The position numbers were made by a program, and so were the translations under genes. Below are positions 1,260 through 35,917 of a stretch of 64,000 nt of DNA, piece after piece. The stretch lies in the NCBI RefSeq assembly GCF_964355755.1, contig NC_092678.1, positions 17,358,714-17,422,713 on the forward strand. Reading direction: 5' to 3'. Source of the DNA: Antedon mediterranea (lineage: Eukaryota; Animalia; Echinodermata). Every line of letters begins with the position of its first letter. Positions within the stretch are counted from its first letter, which is position 1. The notes beneath the pieces are model-generated. The model was given only the letters and a program-made list of their open reading frames with translations, was not told the DNA's origin and did no database searches.

Positions 1260-3999
1260 ATGTGTTCAAAAACATTATTTAATATAAAAAATACTAATCT
1301 AATATAATAATCAAAACACAATATGTTACGTTACTAAATAACATAAATACTACGTGATGATAATATTATACATTTGCATTACATCTAAAATTATCTGAAC
1401 GTTTGTCTTGAATGTTTTATAAATGTTACCTTGGTACGTTATCAAGACGTTAAAATGATACGTTAATAAATAACATAAAAACTACGTTATTATAATACGT
1501 TTTTATAACATTATTATTACATCTTAAAATAACGTTATTTTATAGTTTGTACTTTACGTTTTTACAACGTGTTTGCCGAACGTTTGCTTTGAACGTTGTA
1601 TAAATGTTATATTTGGAGTTAATCAAGACTTTAAAATGTTATGTTAATAAGTAACATAAAATATATGTTATTATAATACGTTTTTATAACATTATTATTA
1701 CATCTTAAATTAACGTTATGTTATAGTTTGCATTTTACATTTGTACAACGTATTTCACAAAGTTTGTCTTAAACGTTGTATAAGTGTTATACTTGTACGT
1801 TATTAAGACGTTAAAACGTTACGTTAATAAATAAAATTAAAACTAAGTTATTAAAAAACGTTTTTATAACATTATTGTTACATCTTAAATTAACGTTAGT
1901 TTATAGTTTGTTTTTTACGTTCGTATAACGTATTTCTGAACGTTTGTCTTGAACGTTGTATAAATGTTATATTGATACGTTATCAAGTCGTAAAAATGTT
2001 ACGTTAATGAATAACATATAAACTACGTTATTATAATACGTTTTTATAACATTATTATTACATCTTAAGTTAACGTTAGTTTATAGTTTGTATTTTACGT
2101 TCGTATAACGTATTTCTGAACGTTTGTCTTGAACGTTGTATAAATGTTATGTTGGTACGTTATCAAGACGTAAAAATGTTACGTTAATGAATAACATATA
2201 AACTACGTTATTATAATACGTTTTTATAACATTATTATTACATCTTAAATTAACGTTAGTTTATAGTTTGTATTTTACGTTCGTATAACGTATTTCTGAA
2301 CGTTTGTCTAGAACGTTGTATAAATGTTATATTGATACGTTATCAAAACGTCAAAATGTTACGTTAATGAATAACATATAAACTACGTTATTATAATACG
2401 TTTTTATAACATTATTTCTACATCTTAAATTAACGTTAGTTTATAGTTTGTATTTTACGTTCGTATAACGTATTTCTGAACGTTTGTCTTGAACGTTGTA
2501 TAAATGTTATATTGGTACGTTATCAAGACGTAAAAATGTTACGTTAATGAATAACATATAAACTACGTTATTATAATACGTTTTTTTAACATTATTATTA
2601 CATCTTAAATTAACGTTAGTTTATAGTTTGTATTTTACGTTCGTATAACGTATTTCTGAACGTTTGTCTTGAACGTTGTATAAATGTTATATTGGTACGT
2701 TATCAAGACGTAAAAATGTTACGTTAATGAATAACATATAAACTACGTTATTATAATACGTTTTTATAACATTATTATTGCATCTTAAATTAACGTTAGT
2801 TTATAGTTTGTATTTTACGTTCGTAAAACGTATTTCTGAACGTTTGTCTAGAACGTTGTATAAATGTTATATTGATACGTTATCAAAACGTAAAAATGTT
2901 ACGTTAATGAATAACATATAAACTACGTTATTATAATACGTTTTTATAACATTATTATTACATCTTAAATTAACGTTAGTTTATAGTTTGTATTTTACGT
3001 TCGTATAACGTATTTCTGAACGTTTGTCTTGAACGTTGTATAAATGTTATATTGGTACGTTATCAAGACGTAAAAATGTTACGTTAATGAATAACATATA
3101 AACTACGTTATTATAATACGTTTTTAGAACATTATTATTACATCTTAAATTAACGTTAGTTTATAGTTTGTATTTTACGTTCGTATAACGTATTTCTGAA
3201 CGTTTGTCTTGAACGTTGTATAAATGTTATATTGGTACGTTATCAAGACGTAAAAATGTTACGTTAATGAATAACATATAAACTACGTTATTATAATACG
3301 TTTTTATAACATTATTATTACATCTTAAATTAACGTTAGTTTATAGTTTGTATTTTACGTTCGTATAACGTATTTCTGAACGTTTGTCTAGAACGTTGTA
3401 TAAATGTTATATTGATACGTTATCAAGACGTAAAAATGTTACGTTAATGAATAACATATAAACTACGTTATTATAATACGTTTTTATAACATTATTATTA
3501 CATCTTAAATTAACGTTAGTTTATAGTTTGTATTTTACGTTCATATAACGTATTTCTGAACGTTTCTCTTGAACGTTGTATAAATGTTATATTGGTACGT
3601 TATCAAGACGTAAAAATGTTACGTTAATGAATAACATAAAAACTACGTTATTATAATACGTTTTTATAACATTATTATTACATCTTAAATTAACGTTATT
3701 TTATAGTTTGTATTTTACGTTTTTATAACGTATTTTTCAAACGTTAGGTCTGAACGTAATATAATTGTCACATGTAAACGTTATTAAAACGTGAATATGT
3801 TACGTTACTATACAACAATAATCAAACGTTTCTCAATTACGTAAATAAAACGTTGTGAAAACGTTTTTGTATTAACGTAATTTTATTCACATTATGTAAC
3901 GTTTTAATGACGTTGTGACAATGTACTTTTGTAACGTTATTATCGATAACCAAACTATAACGTTCGCGAATGTTGTCATAACGTTATGTGTTTGCTGGG
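1260..3999. mobile_element. One end of a TIR DNA transposon (terminus CCCAGCAAACACATAACGTT on minus strand, probably CMC/EnSpm-like) inserted in Gypsy pol
   Basis: Gypsy RNase H breaks off at SQLDK and the ORF ends in ...DPANT*, encoded by the reverse complement of 3984-3999. The partner TIR is not visible, so the left boundary is arbitrary. Confidence 0.65.
1300..3983. repeat. 180-bp tandem array rich in AACGTT palindromes (~14 units), subterminal array of a TIR transposon
   Basis: Sequence repeats exactly every 180 nt between ~1800 and 3720 and decays at both edges; it ends at a TIR-like terminus at 3999. Confidence 0.95.
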
Positions 4000-6432
4000 T
4001 CTTTATCTAACTGTGAATATCTAGATTCTGTTTCCGACAACCTTCGTGAGGCAAAAGCAACTGGTTGTTCAACATTATCAATGATATGGGAAAGTATGAC
4101 CCCTACACCATAGGGTGACGCATCACATGTCAACATTAGAGGTTTATTTCTATCATAATGTACTAAAACATTAGATGACGTCAGTAGTTCTTTAGATATA
4201 CAAAAGGCATTTTCCTGTCTATCTGACCATAACCACTCTGTATTGTGATTTAACAACTCGTATAGTGGAGCTAAAAGTGAACTTAAATCTTTCATGAATC
4301 TACCATAGTAATTCAATAAACCTAAATAGGCTTTTAATTCTGTCACATTGGTTGGGTTAGGTGCATCTCTTATTGCCTTCACCTTTGTATTTAAGGGATG
4401 AAGCCCATTTGCATCAATTTTAAACCCCAAATATTCAACCTCATTAGAATTAAATACACATTTGTCCCTTTTCAATTTAATGTTGACCTCCTTCAATTTT
4501 AGCAACAACCCTTCTAAGTTCATGTCATGCTCCCTTTGATTAGTGCCCGATACTAGGATATCATCCAAGTATGCTACAACTCCGGGCAGTCCAAATGTAA
4601 TACTATCAACAACTCTCTGAAATATTCCAGGAGCTGATGACACTCCAAACGGTAATATGTTATACTTATACAACCCTAGGTGAGTATTAATAACTGTATA
4701 CTGTTTTGACTCTTCAGACAAAATAAGTTGTTGATATGCATGCGACATGTCTAACTTGGAAAAAATTTTACCCCCGCCTAGTTTGGCAAACAAATCCTCA
4801 ATTAAAGGTAATGGGTACGTATCTACCTTCGCAACTTGGTTAATCGTTAATTTGTAGTCTCCGCAAATTCGTACGGAACCATCAGACTTAATAACGGGTA
4901 CTATAGGTGCAGCCCACTCAGAAAAATTAATAAGCGTAATTGTGCCTTCTTGCTTTAATCTGTGTAATTCTTTTTCGACCTTATCTTTGATCCCAAAGGG
5001 TATTGGCCTTGCTTTACAGAATTTGGGAACAGCCCCTTCCTTCACCAAAAGTCTGGCTTTAAATCCTTTAATTTCACCCAAATTATTCTCAAAGACTTTA
5101 TCATATTTACCAATTATTTCACTATTTAACATAGATCCTTTCGTTTGCACTTGTTTGATTTTACCCCAATCTAATTGTAGATTAGTTAACCAATTCCGGC
5201 CTATCAAGGTGGATCCTCTCCCTGGAATTACTACTAGAGGTAACATAACCAGTTTACCCTCCATACATTTCACCTTTACATGACACACACCAACTACTTT
5301 AATTTCTTCTCCAGTGTATGTTTTCAATTTAGCATCAGATGGTTTAATTATGGGTCTATCTTTACTGTTAGGCCACACTTGTTTCAACATATGATCACTT
5401 ATCACAGATACAGCGGCACCTGTGTCAATTTCCATCTTAACGTTAATACCATTTACATTTAACACTGTTTGATATGGATCAGTGCTTGTTCTACTTAGAA
5501 TAACATTATTAGTAATAGTAAACAATTCATGATATATGTCATTACAATCTCTACTAGTTGGTAAAGCTACCGTATTATAATCATATTCACAACAATCTTC
5601 ATAATCATCATTTACATCTAATTCTCCCAACTGACCCTTAACCTTTCTATTAGTATGTCCCTTTTTCTTTCCATCAGGTGGTTTATTTTTACTTCTACAA
5701 ACAATTTCAAAATGTCCTGTGATTCCACATCGATGACATTTTGACCTCTTCGCTGGACAATTTTCATCTCTGCTAAGATGACCTTCCCTGCCACATTTCC
5801 AACACTTTGCTTTCTCCCCATAGTTAGGTTTCACCTGTCTCTTAAATCTGGCTCTAGGATTACCTTGAATTTGTTTAACTGATGTATCAATCGATGGTTA
5901 TCCTGCCTCCATATTAATATCATGCACTTGTTTGTCCACTGCCAAAATTGCGCTTGAAATATCAACTGCCTTTTTAAATGTTAAATCCGGTTCTGCTAAC
6001 ATTCGCCGTTGTATTGAATTATCATTAATACCTAACACAAGACGATCCCTCAACATCTCTTCTAATGTCGCCCCAAAGTCACATGGTTCTGCTAGCCGTC
6101 TCAATCGTGCTACGTAATCCACTACACTCTCTTTATTTTGTCGATGATTAGAATAGAATTTAAATCGACTAACTATGATATTTGGCTTTGGCTCTGTATG
6201 CCCAGTTATCAAGTTAATTAAATCTTCATATGACTTGTCGGTCACCTTCGCTGGTGCCAGTAAATATTTCATCAAACTGTACGTTTTTTTTTTCACATAC
6301 CGTCAGCAACACTGCTCGTTTCTTCTCGCCGTTGTCGATATCGTTCGCAACAAAATACTGTTCTAGCCTCTCAACATAATCCGACCAGTTTTCTGCTTCT
6401 ACATATTCGTGTAGGATTCCTAATTGAGCCAT
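3984..6432 (-). pseudogene. Disrupted gag-pol polyprotein
   Basis: Gag N-terminus (W..YVERLEQYFVANDI) frameshifts in an A-run at ~6284-6293. An in-frame TAA at 5898-5900 separates the 132-aa and 616-aa ORFs, which share a frame. Truncated at ~4000. Confidence 0.9.
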
Positions 6433-6452
6433 CACAAATTACGATATGTAAT

Positions 6453-6473: not shown

Positions 6474-6678
6474 TGTTGTGTACTAACACCATTTAAGGTA
6501 AATATCTGAACAATAAAAGCAAAACAAGTAAACACACGTGAGTCTAAGTTTAGTCGTTCTCCATCTTCCCCGCATCCGGGGCTTTATTCATTCTCCACAA
6601 CACTATATATATAGAGGGCGTTAGACCATTACAATCGGTTACAATTACAGTACAAGTAATGTACAGTATATGACAACA
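6474..6678 (-). repeat. 5' LTR (205 bp)
   Basis: TGTTGT...ACAACA inverted termini, TATA-like run at ~6604-6613, AATAAA (minus) at ~6583-6588, adjacent to the PBS. Host repeat resumes at 6679. Confidence 0.85.
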
Positions 6679-7945
6679 TGAAACAGACATATTTCATAGA
6701 AGTATTAATTTCTAAAACAAAATAATTGTTTTTATGTTTAACTATATGCCTCATATATGAGGCATAGAGTTAAACTGACGTTTTCATGAGAGGATTATAT
6801 ACTATTTGTTCCACGTGCACAATAAGCTTATAAAACTATTGCAGATTATACGTGAATTGGACCGGTGACGAGTCGGTGACAAACTGAACGGATCATCTAG
6901 GAGTTCTGAAACGTCTGGCCAAGTGCGCTCTCTTTGCGCAGTATTATACGGAGGCGTGTCTATTTTTGTTTTCGTATCTAATTTTGGCTTTAAAACATGT
7001 CAGCCCAAAACAATCGATACCCCTGGATCCGCCCCGTCAGAATATTGTCGATATAAAATGATGGAGGTTCAGACGTTATGTGGAACATTTAAATTGTATT
7101 ATTTGTATTCCCTCTTTAAACTTCATCTTAATTTCAATATAATAATATCAATGAAGTGATATTGTTTACTTAGAAGTGTGCCAGTTATTCAGCACTGAAG
7201 AAAACAAAATCAGAAAAATTTAAACACATGTTACCAGGTTTTTTAAAACATTAATAAAGCTAAGTGTGTTAATTAATGAGATGTAAAGCACATTTTAGCA
7301 TGAGGAAGTGAAAATATGTAGGGAGAGAAAACATAAAGTGTAGACACAGATATCACCTCACAAGCAATCTATTGCTGACCCAGTGTGAAGCCAGAAATCA
7401 AGAGTTGTTCCTGCTCCCCAATTATTGTGGTCCCTTTATTTATAAAACTTGAAAAGCAGAAAAAAGAGGAGGAGGTGTATGTTTGTTTGTTGGCAGACTA
7501 TAACGCTGGTTAAGTTTATCTTACGGACAGGTAACGCTAATAATGTACGTACCACAACATTAGGTAACCGATGCGCCCCCATTATGACACGTGTGAATAA
7601 AGAACAAGTGCTATTCCACTGTACGGAGGGATAGCTACCCGATGCCTCTCATAATAATATTATTTTTCATTCAATAACATATACTAATAATAATTTACTT
7701 TAAAACAAACGAATACAAGTAGGCATATCACTACACACAATACAACTACATACAGGAGCTTGTGTTAAAATAAAGGTTTATGGACCAATCATAATCAAAC
7801 AAAAATGGGCATATTATATTATTTGAGTTTTGGATGAATATTCTGTCTTTGCAAAGGGTAAAAAATGATGTGACAATAAGTGTGGTTATATTACAACGAA
7901 AACATACTATTTTCAAAAGTATGATAAACAAGAGAAAGCACTTAC

Positions 7946-8017
7946 AGTTGTGTCAATGATGTCAATCCATGAAACACATTTGCTGTTAATGTTGTTATTT
8001 GGTTAACGGACAACCAT
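7946..8017 (-). CDS. LRR exon (72 nt): WLSVNQITTLTANVFHGLTSLTQL
   Basis: ttttcag acceptor, GTAAGT donor, phase 2-2, typical 24-aa extracellular LRR consensus. Confidence 0.9.
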
Positions 8018-8169
8018 CTGAAAACCGTGAAAAATGCAATACATAAGTTTAGTTTTGGATGAATATTCTGTCTTTGCAAAGGATAAAAAATGAAATTATG
8101 TGACGACAATAAGTGTGGTTTTATTACAACAAAAATATACTATTTTCAAAAGTATTATAAACAAGTGAA

Positions 8170-8221
8170 ACATTCGAACACATTTGCTGGTAATGTTGTT
8201 ATTTGGTTATTGGCCAACCAC
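8170..8221 (-). pseudogene. Truncated LRR pseudo-exon (WLANNQITTLPANVFE...), donor end deleted
   Basis: Acceptor and first ~16 codons present; 3' part and donor missing relative to the 7946 exon. Confidence 0.75.
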
Positions 8222-10494
8222 CTGAAAAATGTGAAAAATGTAATAAATAATATATACAGTACCAAGGGATAGGATGATAAAACATTATATATTTTATATA
8301 TAATTTAGAAAAACAAACAAAACATAACAATAAATATCTTATTGTGCCAGCAGAGGTCAAGTCCAATTAGGCGTGTCACTCCAGAAGTGAAACCATTACA
8401 AGGTATATACAAGGACATACTAATACTTGTTTAATGTTACTTTAGCTCGTATTATCATTATTTGCATGTTTTAGCTGTTTTTCATTAACTTCTTCTACAT
8501 GATATAATTATATTTTATCTATATTTTACTGTAATCATGTTGTACTTTCCATATCATATGATGACATAGATCAATATCTACGATACAATACAACCGTTAA
8601 ATGACGATGATCCATGTGTTCTGCTATATTTTTACGTTTCGTTATGGCCGCCGATGGTGCTACAGTAACTGAATTAAATAGTCTTGAGTTCGAATAAACA
8701 ATGCCAAAATAGAAAAACTCAAAAAGAGCAAAAAGAAAGACATTACATTTGAACGTATTACGAATGAAACAGACATATTTCATTGAAGTATTAATTCCTA
8801 AAATAAAATAATTGTTTTTATGAGGAAAAGAGTTAAACTGACGTTTTCATGAGAGGAAGATATATAATATTTGTTCCTCATGCAAAATAAGCTTATTACA
8901 ACACTATTACACTAAAGCATAAAGTTACACTTAACTGTGCTTTAAAATAAACATAATTAAAAGCATTACACAGTATAGGCCTAATAGTTCACCCGATAAA
9001 AATTTCTGATTTGTCCAAATTTTTTTTAAAAAAATCTGACAAATATAAACATGAAGAAATAAAAAACAATGTCGTTAATATACATCAGACTTAAGAATAA
9101 TGACATCAATTTTCGATAATCATAAGGACGAGTTCTCGAATGATTATCTCATTTGTGCCCATGGAATTGATATTTCCTAAGTTCACCTAACTACGGAGGA
9201 ATAACGCATTTATATTATGACTACATTAATCATAATGTTTAATGATGCTGTGTTATCGAATTTTCTATGTTACTGGAGAAATCGGGATACAATACCGATA
9301 ACCAGGTGTGTTAGACCAGAATACGTTACTCCGGCTTAAAATGGAGGTATTTGCTTTAACCACGTTCTGAAATGTGTCTGTAAGATTATGTTAGGCAAAA
9401 ACAACACCTTGTATACCATAGCAGCCTGGTGTAGAGACCTATGTATTGCCTTCGCTAAATCCTTTCTTAAACTTGTTCCCACTTATACCTTCTGGAGAAA
9501 TGTTATCCATAGATATAACCCTAATATACTGCTGATTGGATTCGTCATATTATAATTGTAACACAATGTGTCATAAGAACTGTTCGTTATACCTTGGTAG
9601 TAAGTGGTGCAATTAATTAAAGAATTATATGATTTGTAAATAGTTTACACAAAGTGCAACACAGTGTGACGTATTATCTGCTACAATATCTAATGATTAC
9701 ACATTTTTAATAATTATGTAAATTCTCATTTAATAAAACACTTATAATAACAAATTACCGTATTAAACGTACAAATCAAAGTATAAAAACAATAAGTATA
9801 TACAGTACGAACAGAAATTACGATAATAAAGTGTCTATTTATTAATTTCGAAATACAAAAAAAAAATAAAAACAAATTATTTATATTGTGCCAACAGAGG
9901 CCAAAAAGACTTATGTCCAATTAGGCGTGTCACTCTGACAGTGAAACAATTACAAGGTATAATTGATATAATACTAATTTAATGTTACTTTATCTCGTAT
10001 TATCATTTCATGTTTTAGCTGTTTTTCATTAACTGTCTTTGCATGATTATAACAATGTTTTATCTAGATTGACTGTAATCATGTTGTACTTTCCATATCA
10101 TATGATTTCTCGTATTATCATTATTTGCATGTTTTAGCTGTTTTTCATATGATTTCTAGATGTATTTCAATATCTACGATACAATACAACCGTTAAATGA
10201 CGATGATCCATGTATTCTGCTATATTTTTATTTTTCATTATGGCCGCCGATGGTGCTACAGTAACTGAATTAAAGAGACAAAACAATGCCAAAATAGAAA
10301 AACTCAAAAAGAGCAAAAAGAGAGATATTACATTTGAACGTATTACACATGAAACAGACATATTTCATAGAAGTATTAATTCCTAAAACAAAATAATTGT
10401 TTTTATGTTTAACTCTATGCCTCATAGAGTTAAACTGACGTTTTCATGATATGAAGATATATACTATTTGTTCCACGTGCACAATAAGCTTATA

Positions 10495-11442
10495 TACTCA
10501 TGGTTTGTGAAAGAATATTTCATTATTCCAATGTCACAACTAAAATGGGAAGAGTACTTCAATGATAACAACATTGATTGGAAAACTTCTTGGTTACGGA
10601 AAGTATGTAAAATGAAAGATAAGAAACTAGCACAATTCAATTATAAGATGTTACATAGAATACTGCCTACCAACAAACGGCTGTACCAGTGGAAAGTTAA
10701 GGAAACACAAACGTGTGACAAATGTGGAGAAATTGAAAATGAAAATCATTTGTTTTTTAGTTGTGGATTTATTCAGAAATATTGGAGGAAAATGTTTAGT
10801 ATCTTTGTAAGTTTAAATCACAATAATATATCATTTAAACAATTAATACTAGGAACGGGAGATAAGCTAATAGATTATATTTACACTTTTTCAGCAATAT
10901 ACTATTTATAGAATAAAAATGTTATCTGCACTAAATAAGCCAGTGGGTAAATCTTTATGGAATTCATTTAAAAGCAATATGTTATATATCATTGAATGTG
11001 AAACATATAAAAATAAAGAAACAAGTATAGAAAAATGGGTAGCTTTAAGAAATAAGATTATGATAATATAATTTCTAATTTGATACGATTAACCGAAAAA
11101 GAATTACAGTGATACGGGTTACTGGTGGTACTGAGCTATTATTGGTTTTTTTTATCATGTATATAAATATATTGTATAATCCGGGTTGTAAAATGAAAAC
11201 AAACAAATGAAAATGTGTGAACTATTTTAAAACGGGATAGATGATAATGATGATCCTGTCAAGTGTATAACAAATATAAGAAAAGTAATGAAAAAAGGAG
11301 TAATACAGAATTCATAATATGTAAAAATGTTACTTATGAACTGTAACGACATTTACAAGTTAAATAATACGATTTTATGTAATATGAGATAATATGAATG
11401 TGAATAAAAGTGGTGTTTGCGCCACAAAAGAGAAAAAAAAAA
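10495..11442 (+). mobile_element. 5'-truncated Tx1/L1-clade LINE (zf-RVT C-terminus, 3' UTR, polyA)
   Basis: ORF 10468-10911 has FNYKMLHRILPTN...CDKC...ENENHLFFSC (zf-RVT motif); AATAAA at ~11404 and A-tail at 11433-11442. Confidence 0.85.
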
Positions 11443-12967
11443 TGTGTTAATTAATGAGATGTAAAGCACATTTTAGCATGAGAAAGTGAAAATATGGAGG
11501 GAAAGAAAACATAAAGTGTAGACACAATTATCACCTCACAAGCAATCTATTGCTGACCCAGTGTGAAGCCAGAAATCAAGAGTTGTTCCTGCTCCCCAAT
11601 TATTGTGGTCCCTTTATTTATAAAACTTGAAAAGCAGAAAAAGGGGAGGAGGTGTATGTTTGTTTGTTGGCAGACTATAACGCTGGTTCAGATTTTAAGT
11701 TAAGTTTATCTTACGGACGGATAACGCTAATAATGTACGTACCACAACATTAGGTAACCGATGCGCCCCCATTATGACACGTGTCAATAAAGAACAAGTG
11801 CTATTCCACTGTACGGAAGGATAGCTACCCAATGCCTCTCATAATAACATTATTTTTCATTCAATAACATATACTAATAATGATGATAATAATTTACTCT
11901 AAAACAAACGAATACAAGTAGGCCTCATTACACACAATACAACTACATACAGGAGCTTGTGTTAAAATAAAGGTTTAGTGATCAATCATAATCAAACAAA
12001 AACGGGCATATTATATTATTTTAGTTTTGGATGAATATTCTGTCTTTACAAAGGTTACACCCCCCGGGGAAATTTGGCGACCGGCACTCCAAAAAGCTGG
12101 TAACATCCCTGCGTTATTATATGAATACCTGCAAATATTGAAAAAAAAGACACACATTTCAAACTGATTGATTTAAAACAATATATTAATAATAATACTG
12201 TACAACAATACAATAAATAGATAACCACTACATTTGTCTGATATATTTCACAGTAGGCCTACAGTTATTTGTATTCAGCATTTCAGTGGGCGATTTAGAC
12301 TTCGTTTGGCACTCGAAACAATGTCAAATGAAAGGCAAGCTAATATTGCCATGAGGAGGTGCAAATCTGAGGGAGCAGAAAATATAAAGTGAACAATTCC
12401 AAACAGATATCACCTCAACTTTATTTATAAAACTTGAAAATCAGAAAAAAAAGGGGAGAAGATAGTGTATTATTTGTGGTTGTTGCCAGATGCCTAAACT
12501 CTAGAAAATGATAAATTAAGTTTATCTTACGGACGGATAACGCTAATAATAACAATTATTAATTCATAGTTATGCTTTATAGCTTTTTGAGGGTTTTTTT
12601 TCGTGCACTTAGAAGAACTTATTTAAAGTGCATTTTAAGTATTGTTTTTCTTCTAGATTATTTCAGTCATCACAATAGTTAATGTTTGTTTAATTTGGAG
12701 GTTCAGACTTAAACACAAAGTACCAATGTATAAAGTGCACTATGCTGTGTGAAATAAAACTGAAACTGAATGTACGTACCACCACATTAGGTAACCGATG
12801 CGCCCTCATTATGACGATTTTTTTAGAGAAAGATACAAACCATCTGTTGCGCGTGCGAATAAAGAACACGTGCAGCTATTCCACCGTACGAAGTGAAAGA
12901 TAACAAATGCCTCTCATAATAACATTATTTTTCATTTAATAATATTTACTAATAATGATAATAACAA

Positions 12968-14006
12968 CTAGATTTGAACTCGTAACTATGGACGAGTTAG
13001 GTTATCCGCAGCGAAAATGCCACGTGTACGTCATACTTTAGAATATTGCGCACAGAAAAACGATTATGCCATTGAAAAAATGTTAGTGTGCTCTCAATTA
13101 TATGTCACGTCTAAGTATATAGAGTATACACTATATATCTGTATACGTACTACAACCAGTGCAGAATAGGTGAAAATACCGGGACCCGCTTTGTCATCCA
13201 ATTTTTACCATGATGATGTCATCAAAATGAAACACGTAGATAGCAATTTTGGAAGGAAATTATCTGAGCAACAACATATCGTGTTGAAAAAATTTGGATA
13301 CGTAGAATACGGAAGCGCGCTCTTTTAAATGTCATGAACTATGACGCAAAATATGAAATTACGACTTTTATAATTGAACTGGCCATATGATGACGTCACA
13401 ACATCCAAATCGCATAATTTGTACATGATTTCCAGCTTCCAGAAAACGTTTTAATCATGTGTATCACTTTTTATTCTGATGAGCTATAATAAATTTAAAT
13501 TTATTGGAATGATGAAAAAAAATGATCAAAGTTATTCACGCTTTTGAACATGATGAAGTCATCGCAATTTTAAAAATTGTAAATCAAGCGAAAGATAATT
13601 GATTGACCTAGACAATATAAAAAAATGGTGGGAAATGGAATATGGATAAGTGGAGATGCGTTCTATTAAATGTGATGAGCTATGACAAAAGAGACAACAA
13701 TCCTATATTTTATATTCGAGTGGCCATACGATGACGTCACAATGTCTAGTTAGCCATATTGATACATGATCCGATATCAACAACTCATCTACTTCCAGAA
13801 TATGTAAAAAAATAAACTTCACCATGTAGTTTAGAAACTATGACTGTTTTAAAAAAGGCATAATTATGACGATTTATTTTACTTTTTCAGCAAAAACGAG
13901 CGCAAATTGTCCAATTCGACGTGCTCGTACGACGTGATTTTAAGTCGAAATTGTTTGAAAGCTGGTAAAATTACTAGAAAATACTGGAAAAACATAAATC
14001 ACGCGA
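12968..14006 (-). mobile_element. Non-autonomous Helitron/Helentron-like element, copy 1
   Basis: Minus-strand 3' end has hairpin AACTCGT...ACGAGTT followed by CTAG|T; absent from the paralogous empty site at ~11870-11900. Confidence 0.55.
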
Positions 14007-14154
14007 AAAAAAATAACATTTACTAATAATGATAATAATAATTATACGAATAGGAAAAAGGGTAAAAAATAAAATAATGTGACAATAAGTGTGGTTACAT
14101 TACAACGAAAATATACTATTTTCAAAAGTATGATAAACAAGAGAAGGCACTCAC

Positions 14155-14226
14155 AGTGCTGTCAATGATGTCAAACCATCAAACACATTGGCTGGTAATG
14201 TTGTTATTTGGTTATAGGACAACGAT
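14155..14226 (-). CDS. LRR exon (72 nt): SLSYNQITTLPANVFDGLTSLTAL
   Basis: ttttcag acceptor, GTGAGT donor, phase 2-2, LRR consensus. Confidence 0.9.
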
Positions 14227-14377
14227 CTGAAAACCGAGAAAAATGCAATACATAAGTTTAGTTTTGGATGAATATTCTGTCTTTGCAAAGGATAAAAAAT
14301 GAAATTATGTGACAATAAGTGTGGTTTTATTACAACGAAAATATACTATTTTCAAAAGTATTATAAACAAGTGAAAC

Positions 14378-14428
14378 ATTCGAACACATTTGCTGGTAAT
14401 TGTTGTTATTTGGTTATTGGCCAACCAC
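14378..14428 (-). pseudogene. Truncated LRR pseudo-exon with an extra 1-nt insertion
   Basis: Duplicate of 8170-8221. Confidence 0.75.
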
Positions 14429-17400
14429 CTGAAAATTGTGAAAAATGTAATAAATAATATATACAGTACCAAGGGATAGGATGATAAAACATTATATATT
14501 TTATATATAATTTAGAAAAACAAACAAAACATAACAATAAATATCTTATTGTGCTAGCAGAGGTCAAGTCCAATTAGGCGTGTCATTCCAGAAGTGAAAC
14601 CATTACAAGGTATATACAAGGACATACTAATACTTGTTTAATGTTACTTTAGCTCGTATTATCATGTTATTTGCATGTTTTAGCTGTTTTTCATTAACTT
14701 CTTCTACATGATATATAATTATGTTTTATCTATATTTTACTGTAATCATGTTGTACTTTGCATATCATATGATGACATAGATCAATATCTACGATACAAT
14801 ACAACAGTTAAATGACGATGATCCATGTGTTCTGCTATATTTTTACGTTTCGTTATGGCCGCCGATGGTGCTACAGTAACTGAATTAAATAGTCTTGAGT
14901 TCGCATAAACAATGCCAAAATAGAAAAACTCAAAAAGAGCAAAAAGAAAGATATTACATTTGAACGTATTACGCATGAAACAGACATATTTCATTGAAGT
15001 ATTAATTCCTAAAATAAAATAATTGTTTTATGAGGAAAAGAGTTAAACTGACGTTTTCATGAGAGGAAGATATATAATATTTGTTCCTCATGCAAAATAA
15101 GCTTATTACAACACTATTACACTAAAGCATAAAGTTACACTTAACTGTGCTTTAAAATAAACATAATTAAAAGCATTACACAGTATAGGCCTAATAGTTT
15201 ACCCGATAAAAATTTCTGATTTGTCCAAATTTCTTTTAAAAAAATCTGACAAATATAAACATGAAGAAATAAGAAACAATGTCGTTAATATACATCAGAC
15301 GTAAGAATAATGACATCAATTTTCGATAATCATAAGGACGAGTTTTCGAATGATTCTCTCATTTGTGCCCATGGAATTGATATTTCCTAAGTTCACCTAA
15401 CTACGGAGGATTAACGCTTTTATATTATGACTACATTAATCATAATGTTTAATGATGCTGTGTTATCGAATTGTCTATGTTACTGGAGAAATCGGGATAC
15501 AGTACCAATAATCAGGTGTGTTAGACCGGAATACGTTACTCCGGCTTAAAATGGAGGTCTTTGCTTCAACCACGTTCTGAAATGTGTCTGTAAGATTATG
15601 TTAGGCAAAAACAACACCTTGTATACCATAGCAGCCTGGTGTAGAGACCTATGTATTGCCTTCGCTAAATCCTTTCTTAAACTTGTTCCCACTTATACCT
15701 TCTAGAGGAATGTTATCCATAGATATAACCCTAATATACTGCTGATTGGATTCGTCATATTATAATTGTAACACAATGTGTCATAGAACTGTTCGTTATA
15801 CCATGGTAGTATGTGGTGCAATTAATTAAAGAATTATATGAGTTGTAAATAGTTTACACAAAGTGCAACACAGTGTGACGTATTATCTGCTACAATATCT
15901 AATGATTACACATTTTTAATAATTATGTAAATTCTCATTTAATAAAACATACCACTTATAATAACAAATTACCGTATTAAACGTACAAATCAAAGTATAA
16001 AAACAATAAGTATATAGTACCAACGGAAATTACGATAAAAAAATATCTATTTATTAATTTCGAATATACAAAAAAAAAAATAACAACAAACTATCTATAT
16101 TGTGCCAACAGAGGCCAAAAAGGCTTAGGTCCAATTAGGCGTGTCACTCTGACAGTGAAACAATTACAAGGTATAATTGATATAATACTAATGTTAATGT
16201 TACTTTATCTCGTATTATCATTTCATGTTTTTCATTAACTGTCTTTGCATGATTATAACAATGTTTTATCTAGATTGACTGTAATCATGTTGTACTTTCC
16301 ATATCATATGATTTCTAGACATAGATCAATATCTACGATACCGGTACAATACAACCGTTAAATGACGATGATCCATGTATTCTGCTATATTTTTATTTTT
16401 CATTATGGCCGCCGATGTTGCTACAGTAACTGAATTAAATACCGTAATCGCATAAACAATGTCAAAATAGAAAAACTCAAAAAGAGCAAAAAAAAAAAGA
16501 TATTACATTTGAACGTATTACACATGAAACAGACATATTTCATAGAAGTATTAATTCCTAAAACAAAATAATTGTTTTTATGTTTAACTCTATGCCTAAT
16601 AGAGTTAAACTGACGTTTTCATGAGATGAAGATATATACTATTTGTTCCACGTGCACAATAAGCTTATAAAACTATTGCAGATTATACGTGAATCGGACC
16701 GGTGACGAGTCGGTGACAAACCGAACGGATCATCCAGGAGTTCTGAAACGTCTGGCCAAGTGCGCTCTCTTTGCGCAGTATTATACGGAGGCGTGTCTAT
16801 TTTTGTTTTCGTATCTAATTTTGGCTTTAAAAACATGTCAGCCCAAAATAATCGCTACCCCTGGATCCGCCCCGTCGGAATATTGTCGATATAAAATGAT
16901 GGAGGTTCAGACGTTCTGTGGTACATTTAAATTGTATTATTTGTATTCCCTCTTTAAACTTCATCTTAATTTCAATATAATAATATCAATTAAGTAATAT
17001 TGTTTACTTAGAAGTGTGCCAGTTATTAAGCACTGAAGAAAACAAAATCAGAAAAATGTAAACACATGTTACCAGGTTTTTTTAAAACATTAATAAAGCT
17101 AAGTGTGTTAATTAATGAGATGTAAAGCACATTTTAGCATGAGGAAGTGAAAATATGGAGGGAAAGAAAACATAAAGTGTAGACACAGATATCACCTCAC
17201 AAGCAATCTATTGCTGACCCAGTGTGAAGCTAGAAATCAAGAGTTGTTCCTGCTCCCCAATTATTGTGGTCCCTTTATCTATAAAACTTGAAAAGCAGAA
17301 AAAAGAGGAGGAGGTGTATGTTTGTTTGTTGGCAGACTATAACGCTGGTTCAGATTTTAAGTTAAGTTTATCTTACGGACAGATAACGCTAATAATGTAC

Positions 17401-18843
17401 GTACCACAACATTAGGTAACCGATGCGCCCCCATTATGACACGTGTGAATAAAGAACAAGTGCTATTCCACTGTACGGAAGGATAGCTAACCGATGCCTC
17501 TCATAATAATATTATTTTTCATTCAATAACATATACTAATAATGATAATAATAATTTACTTTAAAACAAACGAAAGGTTGTAGTCAAGAGGCAGGAAACT
17601 GCAGGTGTTGTTTATTGCCTTTAGACATAAACAGGTACCACCGTACGAGAATCGGGTGTCCAACGGACGAGTACCATGTGTGTATATCGGGAACAAAGCT
17701 ATTATAAAGTGTACAGATTTTACAGACTATGTCTACGACACATAATATGTTGTATGACAAGAATTAATGAATATGAGTCCGATAATTGTACAGAGTATCA
17801 AACAACTACATGTGGATTATTAAACATTTTGACAAACATAGCGTTTCATACGTATAGTACGTGTACACACTTTATAGAAAACATTGAAACGCGACAACAG
17901 AAAAAAGACAATAACAGAGACTTGGGACAAGTCTATACAGTATTAATTTACAGTATTGAAAGTGATGAAGCAAAAGCAGAAAATGCACCTTGATCTATGG
18001 TAGTTATGGCATTATCGTTTAAATACCTACAGATATTGAAAAAAAAAAGACATTTCAAATTATTAATAATAATACTGTACAACAATACAATAAATAGACA
18101 ACCACTACATTTGTCTGCTATATTTCACAGTACAGTTATTTGTATTCAGCATTTCAGTGGGCGATTTAGACTTCGTCTGGCACTCGAAACAATGTCAAAT
18201 GAAAGGCAGACTAATATTGCCGAGAGGAGGTGCAAATCTGAGGGAGCGGAAAATATAAAGTGTACAATTCCAAACAGATATCACCTCAACTTTATTTATA
18301 AAACTTGAAAATCAGAAAAAAAGGGGAGAAGGTAGTGTATTATTTGTGGTTGTTGCCAGATGCCTAAACTCTAGAAAATGATAAATTAAGTTTATCTTAC
18401 GGACGGATAACGCTAATAATAACAATTATTAATTCATAGTTATGCTTTATAGCTTTTTGAGGTTTTTTTTCGTGCACTTAGAAGAACTTATTTAAAGTGC
18501 ATTTTAAGTATTGTTTTTCTTCTAGATTATTTCAGTCATCACAATAGTTAATGTTTGTTTTATTTGGAGGTTCAGACTTTAAACACAAAGTACAAATATA
18601 CAGTATAAAGTGCACTATGCTGTGTGAAATAAAACTGAAACTGAATGTACGTACCACCACATTAGGTAACCGATGCGCTCTCATTATGACGTTTTTTATA
18701 AGAGAAAGATACAAACCATGTGTTGCGCGTGCGAATAAAGAACAAGTGCAGCTATTCCACCGTACGGAGGGAAAGATAACCAATGCCTCTCATAATAACA
18801 TTATTTTTCATTTAATAATATTTACTAGTAATGGTAATAACAA

Positions 18844-19899
18844 CTAGATTTTAACTCGTCACTATGAACGAGTTAAGTTATCCGCAGCACAAACGCCACG
18901 TGCACGTCATACTTTAGAATATTGCGCACACAGAAAAACGATTATGCCATTTAAAAAATGTTAGTGTGCTCTCTATTTTGTGTCACGTCTAAGTATATAG
19001 AGTATACACTATATCTCTGTATACGTACTACATACAGTGCAGAATAGATGAAAATACCGGAACCCGCGTTTTCATCCAATTTTTACAATGATGATGATGA
19101 TACAATGTGATAGCAATTTTGCAAGGAAATTATCTGAGCAACAACGTATCAACGTGTTGAATAAATTTGGATACGTAGAATACGGAAACACGCTCTTTTA
19201 AATGTCATGAACTATGACGCAAAATATGAAATTAATTAAAATTAATTATAATTGAACTGGCCATATGATGACGTCACAACATTCGATTCGCATAATTTGT
19301 ACATGAATTCCTATCTACAATTCAACAGCTTCCAGAAAACGTTTTAATCATGAGTATCACTTTTTATTCTGAGGAGCTATAATAAATTTAAATTTATTGG
19401 AATGATGAAAAAAAGTGACCAAAGTTATTCACGCTTTTGAACATGATGAAGTCATCACAATTTTAAAAGTGGTAAATCATGCGAAAGATAATTGATTGAC
19501 CTAAACAATATAAACATATGGGGGAAAATGGAATATGGATAACTGGAGATGCGCTCTATTAAATGTCATGAGCTATGACAAAAGAGACAAAAATCCTATA
19601 TTTTATATTCGAGTGGCCATACGATGACGTCACAATGTCTAGTTAGCCATATTGATACATGATCCGATATCAATAACTCATATACTTCCAGAATATGTAA
19701 AAAAAAAACTTCACCATGTAGTTTAGAAACTATGACTGTTTTAAAAAAGGCATAATTTTGACGATTTTTTTTTACTTTTTCATCAAAAACGGGCGCAAAT
19801 TGTCCAATTCGACGTGCTCGTATGACGTGATTTTAATTCGAAATTGTTTGAAAGCTGTTAAAATTACTAGAAAAGGCTGAAAAAACATAAATCACTTGA
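18844..19899 (-). mobile_element. Non-autonomous Helitron/Helentron-like element, copy 2 (co-duplicated with host)
   Basis: Highly similar to 12968-14006 with the same flanks. Confidence 0.55.
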
Positions 19900-20046
19900 A
19901 AAAAATAACATTTACTAATAATGATAATAATATTTATACGAATAGGGCAAAGGGTAAAAAATAAAATGATGTGACAATAAGTGTGGTTATATTACAACGA
20001 AAATATACTACTTTCAAAAGTATGATAAACAAGAGCAAACACTCAC

Positions 20047-20118
20047 AGTTCTGTCAATGATGTCAAACCTTCAAACACATTCTCTGTTAATGTAGTTATT
20101 TGGTTATGGTTTAACCAC
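20047..20118 (-). CDS. LRR exon (72 nt): WLNHNQITTLTENVFEGLTSLTEL
   Basis: gttttcag acceptor, GTGAGT donor, phase 2-2, LRR consensus. Confidence 0.9.
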
Positions 20119-22559
20119 CTGAAAACAGTGAAAAAATGCAATAAATAAGTACAGTATATATATAGTACCAAAGAATAGTAAGATAAAAATTATCTATTTT
20201 ATTAATTTAGAAATACTTTCCATATCATATGATTTCTGGATGTAGATCAATATCTAATGCATTAAATAAGTATATATACAGTACCAAAGGATAGTACGAT
20301 AACAAAAAATATTTTTTAAATTTCGAAATACAAACAAAATATAACAACATATATCTATATTGTGCCAACAGAGGTCATAAACGGCTTATGTCTAATTAGG
20401 CGTGTCACTCCAGCAGTGAAACCATTACAGGGTATATACAAGGACATAATAATATTTGTTTAATGTTACTTCAGCTCGTATTATCATTAGTTGCATGTTT
20501 TAGCTGTTTTTCTTTAACTGCTTTTACATGATATAACTATGTTTTATCTGGAATTACTTTAATCATGTTGTACGTTCCATATCATATGATGACATAGATC
20601 AATATCTACGATACAATACAACCGTTTAATGCCTATGATCCATGTGTTCTGCTATATTTTTACGTTTGGTTATGGCCGTCGATGGTGCTACAGTAACTGA
20701 ATTAAATAGTCTTGTTCGCAAACAATGCCAAAATAGAAAAACTCAAAAGGAGCAAAAAGAAAGATATTACATTTGATCGTATTACGCATGAAACAGACAT
20801 ATTTCATTGAAGTATTAATTCCTAAAATAAAATAATTGTTTTTATGAGAAAAAGAGTTAAACTGACGTTTTCATGAGAGGAAAATATACAATATTTGTTC
20901 CTCGTGCACAATAAGCATATTACAACACTATTACACTAAAGCATAAAGTTACACTTAACTGTGCCTTAATACCGTTTAATAGTTCACCCGATACAACATT
21001 CTGATTTGTCCAAATTAAAAAAAAAAATCTGACAAATATAAACATGAAGAAATAAAAAGCAATGTCATTAATATCAGACTTATGAATAATGACATCAAAT
21101 TTCGATAATCATAAGGACGAGTTCTCGAATGATTCTCTCTTTGTGCCGATGGAATTGATATTTCCTAAGTTCACCTAACTACGGAGGAATAACGCTGTTC
21201 ATGTACGTACCACACTACATTAGATAACAGATGCCTCACATAATTACGTTTTCATGAGAGGAAGATATATCACATTTGTTCCGTGTTAACAATAAGCTTA
21301 TTACAACACTATTGCAAATCATATATGAAATGATACAATATGTCATAGTTCACTACTGTAGTGGAGTTTTAACGCAAACGTATACGTACCACCACACTAT
21401 ATAGATAACAAATGGCTCTTATAATGACGTTTTCTTAGAGGAAGATATATAACATTTGTTCCGCGTGCAAAATAAGCTTATAACGCTATTGTAGATTATT
21501 CGTGAATCGAAACAATTATGTTCAGTGTGCCTATTCCTTCTTGTTTTACTGTGGACAACCGCATAGAGAAACTTTAACATTTAACGCCATGCATCTGGAT
21601 TGTCTGTGATTTTAAAGGATGTCAATGCTATCTCCACATATGACAATTATTTCAATTTTGTAATACAGAATCTCAAATGTATCACATGTGGTTCTTGTAT
21701 CATTAGGTTAAGAATAAACATTTAAAATAATTATATAATTTCTCATTTAATAAAACATACCAGTTATACAACAAACTACGTACAGGAGCTCGAGCTTGTG
21801 TTAAATTAGTACATATGTTCTATCATTTATATTAAGAATACATTAATCATAATGTTTAATGATGCTGTATTATCAAATTTTAATGTTACTGGAGAAATCG
21901 AGATACAATACCGATAATCGGGTGTGTTAGACCAGAATACGTTACTCCTGCTTAAAATGGAGGCCTTTCCTTTAACCACGTTCTGAAATGTGCCTGAAAG
22001 ATTAGGCAAAAGCAACACCTTTTATACCATAGCAGCCTGGTGTAGAGACCTATGTATTGCCTTCGCTAAATCCTTTCTTAAACTTGTTCCAACTTATACC
22101 TTCTAGAGGAATGTTATCCATATATATAACCCTAATATACTGCTGATTAGATTCGTCATTTTATAATTGTAACACAATGTGTCATAAGAACTGTTCGTTA
22201 TACCATGGTAGTATGTGGTGCAATTAATTAAAGAATTATATGATTTGTAAATATTTTAGACAAAGTTCAACACAGTGTGACGTATTATCTGCTACAATAT
22301 CTAATGATTACACATTTTTAATAATTATGTAATTTCTCATTTAATAAAATATACCACTTATAATAGCAAATTACCGTATTAAACGTACAAATCAAAGTAT
22401 AAAAACAATAAGTATATACAGTACCAACGGAACTTAATTATTCTTACCAAGAAATAATACTTTAAGAACAATATTCTTACCAAGAATTTAATTGCTTTTT
22501 TCATTCTTGTTTTAAGCAGTATCTGCCTTAAAATAAGTAACAATTTATCGATTTTTTAA

Positions 22560-23810
22560 AATAGAATTCTTGTTTAAAGCAATATTTTTCTTAAAATAAG
22601 TAAGAATATTCCGATTTGTATTTTTTTGAATTCTTGTTTCAAGCAATATATTTCTTAAAATAAGTAAGAATATTCCGATTTGTATTTTATAGAATTCTTG
22701 TTTCAAGCAATATATTTCTTAAAATAAGTAAGAATATTCCGATTTGTATTTTTTTGAATTCTTGTTTCAAGCAAGATATTTCCTAAAATAAGTAAGAATA
22801 TTCCGATTTGTATTTTATAGAATTCTTGTTTCAAGCAATATATTTCTTAAAATAAGTAAGAATATTCCGATTTGTATTTTTTTGAATTCTTGTTTCAAGC
22901 AAGATATTTCTTAAAATAAGTAAGAATATTCCGATTTTTATTTTTTGAATTCTTGTTTCAAGCAATATTTTTCTTAAAATAAGTAAGAATATTCCGATTT
23001 GTATTTTTTGAATTCTTGTTTCAAGCAATATTTTTCTTAAAATAAGTAAGAATATTCCGATTTGTATTTTTTGAATTCTTGTTTCAAGCAATTTTTTTCT
23101 TAAAATAAGTAAGAATATTCCGATTTGTATTTTTTGAATTCTTGTTTCAAGCAAAATATTTCTTAAAATAAGTAAGAATATTCCGATTTTTATTTGTAGA
23201 ATTCTTGTTTCAAGCAATATTTTTCTTAAAATAAGTAATACAGGGTATTCCGATTTGTATTTTTTAGAATTCTTGTTTTAAGCAATATTTTTCTTAAAAT
23301 AAGTAAGAATATTCCGATTTTTAATTTTAATATTCTTGTTTCAAGCAATATATTTCTTAAAATAAGTAAGAATATTCCGATTTGTATTTTTTGAATTCTT
23401 GTTTCAAGCAATATTTTTCTTAAAATAAGTAAGAATATTCCGATTTGTATTTTTTGAATTCTTGTTTCAAGCAATATTTTTCTTAAAATAAGTAAGAATA
23501 TTCCGATTTGTATTTTTTGAATTCTTGTTTCAAGCAATATGTTTCTTAAAATAAGTAAGAATATTCCGATTTTTATTTGTAGAATTCTTGTTTCAAGCAA
23601 TATTTTTCTTAAAATAAGTAAGAATATTCCGGTTTGTATTTTTTAGAATTCTTGTTTTAAGCAATATTTTTCTTAAAATAAGTAAGAATATTCCGATTTA
23701 TATTTTTAGTTTTCTTGTTTCAAGCAATATATTTCTTAAAATAAGTAACAATATTCCGATTTTTATTTGTAGAATTCTTGTTTCAAGCAAAACTTTTTTT
23801 TAAAATAAAT
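22560..23810. repeat. ~63-64-bp tandem array (~19 units)
   Basis: Unit TTCTTGTTTCAAGCAATATTTTTCTTAAAATAAGTAAGAATATTCCGATTTGTATTTTTTGAA. Confidence 0.95.
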
Positions 23811-24249
23811 AAACAAGAAGTCTATCAAATAAAAACCAGTAAATGTTTACTTATTTTAAGAAAAGTATTGCTTGAAACAAGAATTCTATCAAATTAAAAT
23901 TCGTAAATTCTTACTTATATTGCGAAAAAAATTGCTTGAAACAAGAATTCTATAAAATATAAATCACTAAAAATTTATTTTAAGAACGATAAATAAATTC
24001 TCATTTTAAGTAATATTTTACTTAAACAAATAAATTCAAGAATGTTATAAAACATAATATTAACAATACTGTTATTTTCATTAAGAACTACAATTTACAT
24101 GACATTAGGTACAATAATATATACAACTTCTTTAAAACAAACTTGTTTTTATTAATAATAAAATGCCATCAAAAGAAAACTTAAAAACATTAAAATGGTA
24201 AAATACAAATTTCGTAAAATTCTTCTCCCGCACATGGGCTTTAAACTAT

Positions 24250-27259: not shown

Positions 27260-28800
27260 TCTATTTTAAGTAAACCATTTCTCAAAATAAGTATTTTTCA
27301 GAATATTAAAATAGAATTGACCTCAATTCAAGCAAAAATAGTCTTGATAGGATATAGTATGATATTGACTTCTTATCTTAAGTAAAACATTTCTCAAAAT
27401 AAGTATTTTTAAAAATATTGCGAATCTCAATTTAAGCAAAAATAGTCTTGATAAGATAGTATGATATTGACTTCTTATTTTAAGTAAAACATTTCTCAAA
27501 ATAAGTATTTTAAAGAATATTGCGAATCTTGATTCAAGTAAAAATAGTCTTGATAAGATAGTATGATATTGACTTCTTATTTTAAGTAAAACATTTCTCA
27601 AAATCAGAATATTGCGAATCTGAATTCAAGCAAAAATAGTCTTGATAGGATAGTATGATATTGACTTCTTATTTTAAGTAAAACATTTTTCAAAATAAGT
27701 ATTTTTTAAAATATTGCGAATCTCAATTTAAGCAAAAATAGTCTTGATAAGATAGTATGATATTGACTTCTTATTTTAAGTAAAACATTTCTCGAAATAA
27801 GTATTTTTAAGAATATTTCGAATCTTGATTCAAGTAAAAATAGTCTTGATAAGATAGTATGATATTGACTTCTTATTTTAAGTAAAACATTTCTCAAATT
27901 AAGTATTTTTAAAAATATTGCGAATCTCAATTTAAGCAAAAATAGTCTTGATAAGATAGTATGATATTGACTTCTTATTTTAAGTAAAACATTTCTCAAA
28001 ATAAGTATTTTTAAGAATATTGCGAAACCTAATTTAAGAAACTTTGTCTTACCTAAAAAAATATTTATTGTTTTAAGTAATTTTTAGAATTCATCAATCT
28101 TGATTTAAGAAAAATTATTCTTGATAGGGATAAATATAATATTGATTTCTTATTTTAAGTAAAATACTTTTCAAATTAAGTATTTTCAAATCTTGTTTTA
28201 AGCAAAACTATTCTTAATAAGAAGAGAATGATATTGACTTCTTATTTTAAGTAAAATATTTCTTGTAATAAGCATTTTCAAGAATATTGCGAATCTTGAT
28301 TCAAGTAAAAATAATCTTGATAAGGGTAGTGTGAAATTGACTTCTTATTTTAAGTAAAATATTTCTCAAAACAAGTATTTTCAAGACTATTGCGAAACCT
28401 AATTTAAGAAACTTTGTCTTACCTAGAAAAATATTGATTGTTTTAAGTAATTTTTATAATTCATCAATCTTGATTTAAGAAAAATTATTCTTGATAGGGA
28501 TAAATATAATATAGATTTCTTATTTTAAGTAAAATACTTTTCAAATTAAGTATTTTCAAATCTTGTTTTAAGCAAAACTATTCTTAATAAGAAGAGAATG
28601 ATATTGACTTCTTATTTTAAGTAAAATATTTCTTGTAATAAGCATTTTCAAGAATATTGCAAAACTTAATTTAAGAAAATGTGTCTTTTCTAGAAAATGA
28701 TTTCTTGTTTTAAGTAATTTTAAATCTTGACAAGAAAAAAAATACTTATTTTAAGAATTTTTTCTTAAAACAAGATTTTTTTTTCTTGCTTAGAATTTCA
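27260..28800. repeat. ~102-bp tandem array grading into degenerate units
   Basis: CTTATTTTAAGTAAAACATTTCTCAAAATAAG recurs every 102 nt. It shares the CTTAAAATAAG motif, inverted, with the left array. Confidence 0.9.
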
Positions 28801-31430: not shown

Positions 31431-31502
31431 AGTATTTGCAAAGATGTTAAACCACCAAATACATTTGCAGGCAATGATTGTATGTTGTTTTCGTATAAAT
31501 AC
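31431..31502 (-). CDS. LRR exon (72 nt): YLYENNIQSLPANVFGGLTSLQIL
   Basis: gaag acceptor, GTAAGT donor, phase 2-2, LRR consensus. Confidence 0.9.
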
Positions 31503-35230: not shown

Positions 35231-35917
35231 TACCTAAAGAACCAACAACATCGACAAAGGTTCGAGGCCGACTCGCTCCTAGTTCTGGTGGTGGAACAAG
35301 TCTTCTCGGATAAGGACTATAAACCGTAGGTCCAGTGTACACAGTTATAACCTGTGTGCACTTTAAAGAACCCAGTTCATTATTCGAAAAGAGTAGGGGG
35401 TTACCCCGGTGAACTGGTTCACAAAATAGCTCTGTATCAGGGGGATTGCCACCTATCTGATAGGACAGTGATTAATCCACTATTGTTAATCCTTGGCCAC
35501 ATTGCCTAAAGACATAAAATTAAAATTAAATATCAATGTAAACGATTCCATGTAGTTCATGTTCTAAAAAACTGCTATTGTTAGCCCTGAAAAAAAGAAC
35601 CTATTATACTTTAACGGACCATTTTCGCTGAACACGTCGTAGATGTTGGTACTTAGCGTTAGTTAGTTTTAAGTTGGACAAAAGCAGTTTATTAACTTTA
35701 AAAGGAGCATCCCAACCATTGCCTGGTCGGCGATCTTTGACTAAACGTCCTAAATATATTTTTGAACAAACAAAGTTAAATCAAATCATCTGAACTCATA
35801 TAGAAACATCTACACATATCATATATCTTATATCACATGCCTAATTTCATAATTAACATGATTAATTTACAATGTAAATCTGCAGCATATTCGAAGTATA
35901 AAATTATAAGAAAACAC

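Follow-up and report, generated by a model that had tools for sequence, protein, structure and literature searches.

Why should the exons of a recently duplicated gene segment differ more from one another than the introns that were copied with them? The question is raised by an array of leucine-rich repeat (LRR) exons in a 64,000-nt stretch of the genome of Antedon mediterranea (NC_092678.1, positions 17,358,714-17,422,713, forward strand), which is called the window here and to which all positions refer. In this array, recently copied exons have diverged two to five times more than the introns that surround them. An original prediction, drawn from the sequence by eye, held that the duplicated exons evolve faster than their introns at ligand-facing positions. 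The excess on which it relied is real, but the claim was overstated, as part of the gap arises because exons and introns are of unequal age. Unequal age accounts for that part, and diversifying selection on a predicted concave binding face probably accounts for the rest, a reading to which we assign a probability of roughly 60%.

The minus strand carries seven short open LRR exons, which are listed here in transcript order (D, E, F, C, G, B, A).

61488-61559, minus strand: LRR exon D, 72 nt, phase 2, AG..GT, open; LRR_8 E=0.015; the first LRR exon in the window by transcript order
54981-55052, minus strand: LRR exon E, 72 nt, an older duplicate of D; LRR_8 E=2e-5
31431-31502, minus strand: LRR exon F, 72 nt; LRR_8 E=0.002
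20047-20118, minus strand: LRR exon C, 72 nt; LRR_8 E=2e-4
17952-18026, minus strand: LRR-like exon G, 75 nt, phase 2, AG..GT, open, with an LxxNxI pattern; between C and B
14155-14226, minus strand: LRR exon B, 72 nt; LRR_8 E=5e-5; A-type acceptor flank and C-type donor flank
7946-8017, minus strand: LRR exon A, 72 nt; LRR_8 E=0.0013; the last LRR exon in the window by transcript order

All seven exons are bounded by AG..GT and lie in phase 2, each splitting a Leu codon; six of the seven (A-F) measure 72 nt and one (G) measures 75 nt, and the introns between them span 2.0 to 23.5 kb. Pfam LRR_8 is matched by six of the seven at E<=0.015, in every case as a single repeat and below the curated cut-off (A, B and C at E 5e-5 to 1e-3), and the set conforms to the 24-residue LxxLxLxxNxLxxLPxxxFxx pattern of typical-class repeats. 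Exon G, with 25 codons and no Pfam match at E<=0.001, was overlooked in the original prediction and was recovered by a nucleotide profile. The likely product is an extracellular LRR protein of the typical class, and intron size, repeat content and composition point to an invertebrate animal as host. The window shows no recognisable start, cap, transmembrane or signalling exon and no TIR domain exon; the terminal exons thus lie elsewhere, and the gene extends past the window at its ends. Exon D has Thr where LxLxxN normally has its conserved Asn, a trait of first or atypical repeats; an N-terminal cap may therefore adjoin the edge of the window, just outside it. On the plus strand of the window, no intact LRR exon was found by nucleotide profile (best match E=1.7) or by splice scan.

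The divergence of these exons can be read against the intervening DNA, which between C and B and between B and A consists, by self-alignment, of collinear copies built of modules W, Y and X. The modules are listed without strand.

8018-10494: intron module X copy a, 2.3% (55/2414) from copy b at 14227-16669
20256-21195: intron module X copy c, 7.2% (67/925) from copy a
12111-14154: intron module W copy 1, 5.4% (109/2005) from copy 2 at 18009-20046
6676-7860: intron module Y-Z, on the donor side of exon A, from self-BLAST
11440-12057, 16522-17574 and 29300-29900: further Y-Z copies, from self-BLAST

Divergence is uneven among the modules (X 2.3%, Y 3.0%, W 5.4%; X versus W, p=4e-8). Three young copies of Y-Z are 2.3-3.9% apart, the X copy beside exon C lies 7.2-7.8% from both other X copies, and the homology around A and B stops 93 bases past the donor; of those 93 bases, 5 differ (5.4%).

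Exons A and B differ at 9/72 positions, seven of them replacement and two synonymous, against 60/2507 in the aligned intron (Fisher one-sided p=9.2e-5). The corresponding values are 12/72 against 112/2036 for B and C (p=7.5e-4) and 13/72 against 67/925 in module X for A and C (p=0.003). The A/B count and its five residue changes (W/S, V/Y, T/P, H/D, Q/A) agree with the original prediction, as does exon divergence above that of the intron over the full A/B and B/C alignments. Purely intronic 72-nt segments never reached the exon count in Xa/Xb (0/2343), W1/W2 (0/1915) or Y0/Y2 (0/956). When A, B and C are taken together, 16/72 exon sites are variable against 11/123 in the flanks common to all three (p=0.0096), flanks whose splice signals lower their rate; the exon total of 18 changes compares with 5.8-8.4 expected (P 4e-5 to 0.003). 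The near-identity reported for the intron at 8041-8160 and its copy was counted correctly, with 1 substitution in 117 aligned bases and one 3-nt indel, but this yardstick of about 1% comes from one of the least diverged stretches (0.9%, against 2.3% for the whole side and 5.4% for the other side). CpG hypermutation was considered as a cause of the exon differences and rejected, with 0-1 CpG per exon and no A/B transition.

Silent sites indicate that age contributes to this gap. Synonymous changes per site amount to 2/18.2 for A/B, 3.5/17.2 for B/C and 5/16.3 for A/C, and synonymous exon sites stand about threefold over the intron level: 6 changes on 17.2 sites, against 1.4-2.0 expected (P 0.003-0.017, depending on the background, or 0.014-0.054 when counted as 5 changes). 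This excess is in keeping with older exons. The ratio of non-synonymous to synonymous rates (dN/dS) over whole exons is 1.2 for A/B, 0.8 for B/C and 0.5 for A/C. Further indications come from the flanks. The introns also contain four dead exon relics.

35915-35978 (approximate limits), minus strand: dead copy of exon F with several deletions; nhmmer E=1.2e-4, alignment to F
14377-14428, minus strand: pseudo-exon pB, in which a 29-nt deletion takes the 3' end and the donor; one base more than pA
12111-12128, minus strand: relic of a second G-type exon, with the acceptor and about six codons, followed by unrelated DNA
8171-8221, minus strand: pseudo-exon pA, which shares the 29-nt deletion of pB and has 0 substitutions against it

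Exon B has the letters of A on its acceptor side and the module of C on its donor side, while the donor-side module of A is that of the pseudo-exons. Among A, B, C and pA, each of the three possible pairings finds support in one site or more: over the exon and acceptor, three sites group as AB|Cp and one as AC|Bp, and the donor side groups as Ap|BC. These patterns suggest that exon B is a hybrid cassette. The best single-crossover model leaves B with 7/72 differences, which has a probability of 0.002 at a background of 2.4% and of 0.10 at 5.5%. Given that the chosen flank was a young one, together with the synonymous excess, the low whole-exon dN/dS and the hybrid flanks of B, the exons are in part older than the introns. 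In the simplest history, one unequal crossover, between an A-type and a C-type cassette that had already diverged, would have duplicated the intervening DNA and left B as the hybrid. Recent intron copies (2-5% apart) would thereby have come to lie next to exons with a longer history, for which the intron yardstick is 5-8%.

Sequencing data bear on how young these copies are. Nine runs from three organisms and four studies contain parts of 13900-20300; none holds half of its words and none is on record as RNA. The four runs that were compared all cover this interval (28-30 of 30 bins). Between the window and the contigs of run X5 the difference is 1.5% (36/2359 bases, a hand sum over six of the eight listed pieces that leaves out two pieces in a high-copy element); for the contigs of organism C, some of which may be paralogues, it is 5.6% (108/1937, all eight listed pieces). 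The young intron copies beside A and B would therefore lie near the level of allelic divergence, and an assembly artefact has to be weighed, in which two haplotypes were joined in tandem or letters of paralogous exons were polished into the exons. The 2.3% between the A and B introns is close to the 1.5% of the X5 contigs, and of the 16 places listed for module X, 7 carry the letter of copy a in the best-supported rows, with that of copy b mostly missing. We nevertheless regard such an artefact as very improbable. A mis-join would need passage through about 200 bases of 87-92% identity, and the other copies differ by 5-8% plus insertions. Errors, moreover, would also be expected in the frame, at the splice sites and among the framework residues, all of which are intact, and not on the concave codons in particular; and the signal on those codons is strongest when D, E and F, which lie outside the duplication, are included.

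That signal concerns the remaining part of the gap. The replacement excess is confined to four codons, at LRR positions 3, 5, 7 and 8, which carry 8 replacement changes on 9.5 sites and 0 synonymous changes; the remaining codons have 4 replacement changes on 45.3 sites, near the intron level. We take these positions, in the numbering that we assume for the established LRR structure, to be the outward-facing positions of the beta-strand, and the four codons are predicted to form a ligand-binding face. The positions were picked in the original prediction after looking at the data. Its placing of the variable sites at concave positions holds for three of the five A/B residue changes (five of the seven replacement bases), the remaining two lying elsewhere, and the stretch NQITTL..NVF.GLTSLT that it described as fixed is so in the protein, with synonymous changes present in the DNA.

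A fixed-class codon model was applied to the six 72-nt exons, with or without pA and with G (75 nt) left out; the fits spanned three frequency models and two kappa settings, with three topologies under one frequency model. Across the six-exon fits, dN/dS was 0.06-0.10 for the framework, 0.9-1.7 for other variable positions and 3.0-4.9 for the four concave codons, whose predicted value above 1 is thereby borne out (p from 0.0097 to under 0.0001). A wider concave set of six positions gave 3.3 (p=0.0015, six exons) and the convex set gave 1.07. The four-position set ranks third among the 715 that can be drawn from the 13 non-framework positions, and only 1 of 84 simulations under dN/dS=1 attained the observed statistic. 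The unspliceable pA and pB are identical over their 63 aligned bases at 8165-8227 (0/63 differ); they share the ancestry of the exons, though they move together with the young X copy.

Diversifying selection at the concave positions is accordingly supported with six exons and borderline when A, B and C are taken alone, and several observations weigh against it. For A, B and C alone, dN/dS is 2.5-3.2 with p 0.07-0.16 under free kappa; it reaches 4.4-5.5 (p 0.008-0.017) with kappa fixed from the introns, and the six-position set gives p=0.51. The sample comprises six exons and four codons, and recombination, which is present at the locus, can inflate dN/dS tests made on a fixed tree. The excess of A/B over the 93-base donor-side flank alone (5/93) is not significant (p=0.089). 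The D/E pair is without an exon excess (7/72 against 42/326, p=0.56; its flanks differ at 16/95 and 26/231), and of the 6 replacement changes in this pair only one is concave. In the older comparisons within module X, 49/857 intronic segments (B/C) and 10/854 (A/C), that is 1-6%, reach the exon count. All nine A/B exon differences are transversions, against 89 transitions and 99 transversions in the introns (P=0.003), a pattern that is not obviously predicted by selection alone; replacement changes are enriched for transversions.

Several of these observations would be expected if there were no positive selection at all, the exons being older through crossover and homogenisation of the introns, the framework being purified and the exposed positions drifting freely. 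The threefold level of synonymous exon sites over the flanks, the whole-exon dN/dS of 0.5-1.2, the donor-flank comparison of A/B, the non-significant three-exon test with free kappa and the D/E pair all fit such a history. Free drift, however, would not distinguish the four concave codons from the other exposed positions, which remain near dN/dS 1, and it sits poorly with the rank of the concave set and with the simulations. It also leaves aside one concave base at which A, B, C and pA each have a different letter, in a codon whose third position does not vary. We therefore consider a purely neutral history unlikely, though worth keeping in view.

A further possibility is that short tracts were converted into these exons from related LRR exons elsewhere in the genome, the introns being too diverged to convert. 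Conversion would import silent and replacement differences together, matching the synonymous excess, and it would suit both the one AC|Bp site that is at odds with its neighbours and the codons that carry two changed bases. Contigs of runs X1 and X6 pile up on the cassette, with 11 and 22 at place 14146 and 10 and 14 at 14184, and further variants are read at exon C, where four of the listed variant rows alter three codons, one of them concave. The variant tables give the best-supported rows, with 762 further rows beyond those listed; they point to variation among alleles or paralogues but give no picture of its distribution. The pile-up may itself represent alleles, since depth is no copy number, and metagenome scans, whether with protein or with a 30-base intron motif as the query, gave 0 matches and thus no donor. 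Conversion alone leaves the concentration of replacement changes on four codons unexplained, and as the sole cause it appears quite improbable.

Unequal age joined by diversifying selection therefore remains the reading that we prefer, and a sequence of events can be proposed for it. Units of exon plus intron were repeatedly copied and lost, likely via unequal crossing-over; selection for new binding surfaces would then have kept or added differences at the concave codons, and the outcome would be a divergence peak over the exon of the type known from opsin genes.

Other features of the window record further turnover around the exons. Flank modules without an adjoining exon, either acceptor-side or donor-side, occur at 9791, 15992, 20156, 20256, 28813 and 36356-37051, and they are what is left of further cassettes that were deleted. 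Both copies of W hold an insertion of about 1.07 kb (12963-14020 and 18840-19915), with a direct repeat of about 20 bases on either side. Contig depth over 18840-19915 is one to two orders above that of its neighbours in all four runs compared, so the insertion is a high-copy element common to the three organisms. A fragment of a non-LTR (long terminal repeat) element (10450-10911, plus strand; zf-RVT, E=5e-9) lies in the B-A intron, with no counterpart in the C-B copy. Downstream of exon A, the intron contains a broken Ty3/Gypsy-type retrotransposon (3984-6450, minus strand), which keeps the zinc knuckle, protease, reverse transcriptase and part of RNase H and ends abruptly at a 180-bp satellite. 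The window is AT-rich, with a GC content of 22-40% across 2-kb bins; it contains no N, and satellites are abundant in it. Six unrelated satellite arrays lie inside the introns of this single gene, where they may promote or mark rearrangement.

1394-3807, 22503-23971, 27322-28730, 37419-38750, 39266-45033 and 47569-50611: satellite arrays, with units of 180, 63-64, 102, 56, 76 and 94 bases

Rfam gave no match across 6000-37000.

Searches beyond the window place the repeats in a structural class. A word-based protein search with exon A and its in-frame intron returned 0 matches, while a profile of five exons (A, C, F, E, D) matched 2338 proteins at E<=0.001. Among the 150 best profile matches, 117 carry a cap motif typical of the bacterial-looking matches, and five of the 16 that were looked up are named: one from a bacterium, three from dinoflagellates and, from amphioxus, one LRR-EGF-F5/8-Sushi protein. 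The matches were rejected as a guide to the identity of the gene, being mainly bacterial-looking proteins that share the LRR consensus by convergence. Structure matches of exon C in the PDB include chains of a variable lymphocyte receptor (VLR), LRRTM and LGR4, as well as designed typical LRRs. In run X5, which is RNA by guess, no C-B joint appears among the rows listed, and the run covers introns and the high-copy element as DNA-type runs do, so that it is no guide to expression.

The locus offers a well-resolved and very young case of repeat birth, death and hybridisation within one LRR gene, with controls built into it in the form of dead exon copies and several intron modules of different age. 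It also illustrates that the comparison of exons with introns in tandem arrays can mislead, because an exon and its intron need not share an age. On the evidence of its sequence, the locus does not yet bear on invertebrate immune specificity, and the immune or recognition receptor of the original prediction stays hypothetical. Should the product be a receptor, brown algae, the main group in which such a pattern has been described, would be joined by an animal case, and copy-number and allelic variation would be predicted. A bolder idea, which we hold to be a long shot, is that of an animal recognition gene whose binding surfaces are particular to the individual and are put together from LRR exon cassettes pooled across the genome, with cassettes variable in number and order among haplotypes, hybrid repeats made by conversion or crossover, selected concave codons and combinatorial splicing of frame-neutral exons.

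Other genes are also built from one LRR after another in separate exons. Arrays of the gonadotropin-receptor type are old and stable, unlike the present locus with its copies 2-8% apart and its four dead relics. The vertebrate gonadotropin receptors and other exon-modular LRR genes have phase-2 LRR exons of similar size, thought to derive from exon duplication (PMC11378527). In the literature searched, whose coverage is incomplete, no animal array with one LRR per exon and with exons more diverged than introns was found. Human red and green opsins provide tandem copies in which exons are more diverged than introns, with a divergence peak under gene conversion (PMC3924837). Similarly, at the present locus near-identical introns surround an exon whose divergence, silent sites included, exceeds that of its flanks around selected codons. 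The units duplicated here are exons of one and the same gene, and much of the gap can be put down to one unequal crossover between older cassettes, with no need for conversion to continue.

Among LRR receptors, the Toll-like receptors of echinoderms resemble the locus in having an invertebrate LRR ectodomain whose concave beta-strands are the main target of positive selection, and those of sea urchins are mostly single-exon genes (PMC3367398). The VLRs of lampreys and hagfish share with it the 24-residue typical LRR and variation on the concave beta-sheet; their diversity arises somatically, by a conversion-like process (PMC3900441), whereas here the repeats are ordinary exons fit for splicing, and their variation lies in the germline. 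A VLR is assembled somatically from cassettes into an incomplete germline gene; the present gene falls outside that class, its cassettes being in-frame exons with intact splice sites in one orientation.

The closest likeness is to the ROCO genes of brown algae, which have one repeat per 72-nt phase-2 exon, dead exons in their introns and four selected concave sites (PMC3341825; PMC11378527). The layout of ROCO type I recurs here in six of seven exons, and the inactivated LRR exons of ROCO introns have counterparts in pA, pB and the relics of F and G. The selected ROCO sites 14, 16, 18 and 19 (PMC11378527) are spaced as positions 3, 5, 7 and 8 are here, in a mapping of our own, and positive selection at four concave sites in ROCO is paralleled by the dN/dS of 3.0-4.9 obtained from this small sample. 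The differences concern the repeat type, typical-class and extracellular here and GxxP in ROCO (PMC3341825), the exon border, which here falls inside the first Leu of LxLxxN, and the inverted LRR exons on the non-coding strand of ROCO genes, not found in this window. The ROC-COR GTPase domain, a further ROCO feature alongside the alternative splicing of LRR exons, is likewise without a counterpart in the window, the rest of the gene lying outside it. The locus thus works like a ROCO-type exon array while falling outside the ROCO family, and if the idea of a cassette pool were true, it would represent a germline counterpart of VLR-style diversity, convergent with the brown-algal ROCO genes.

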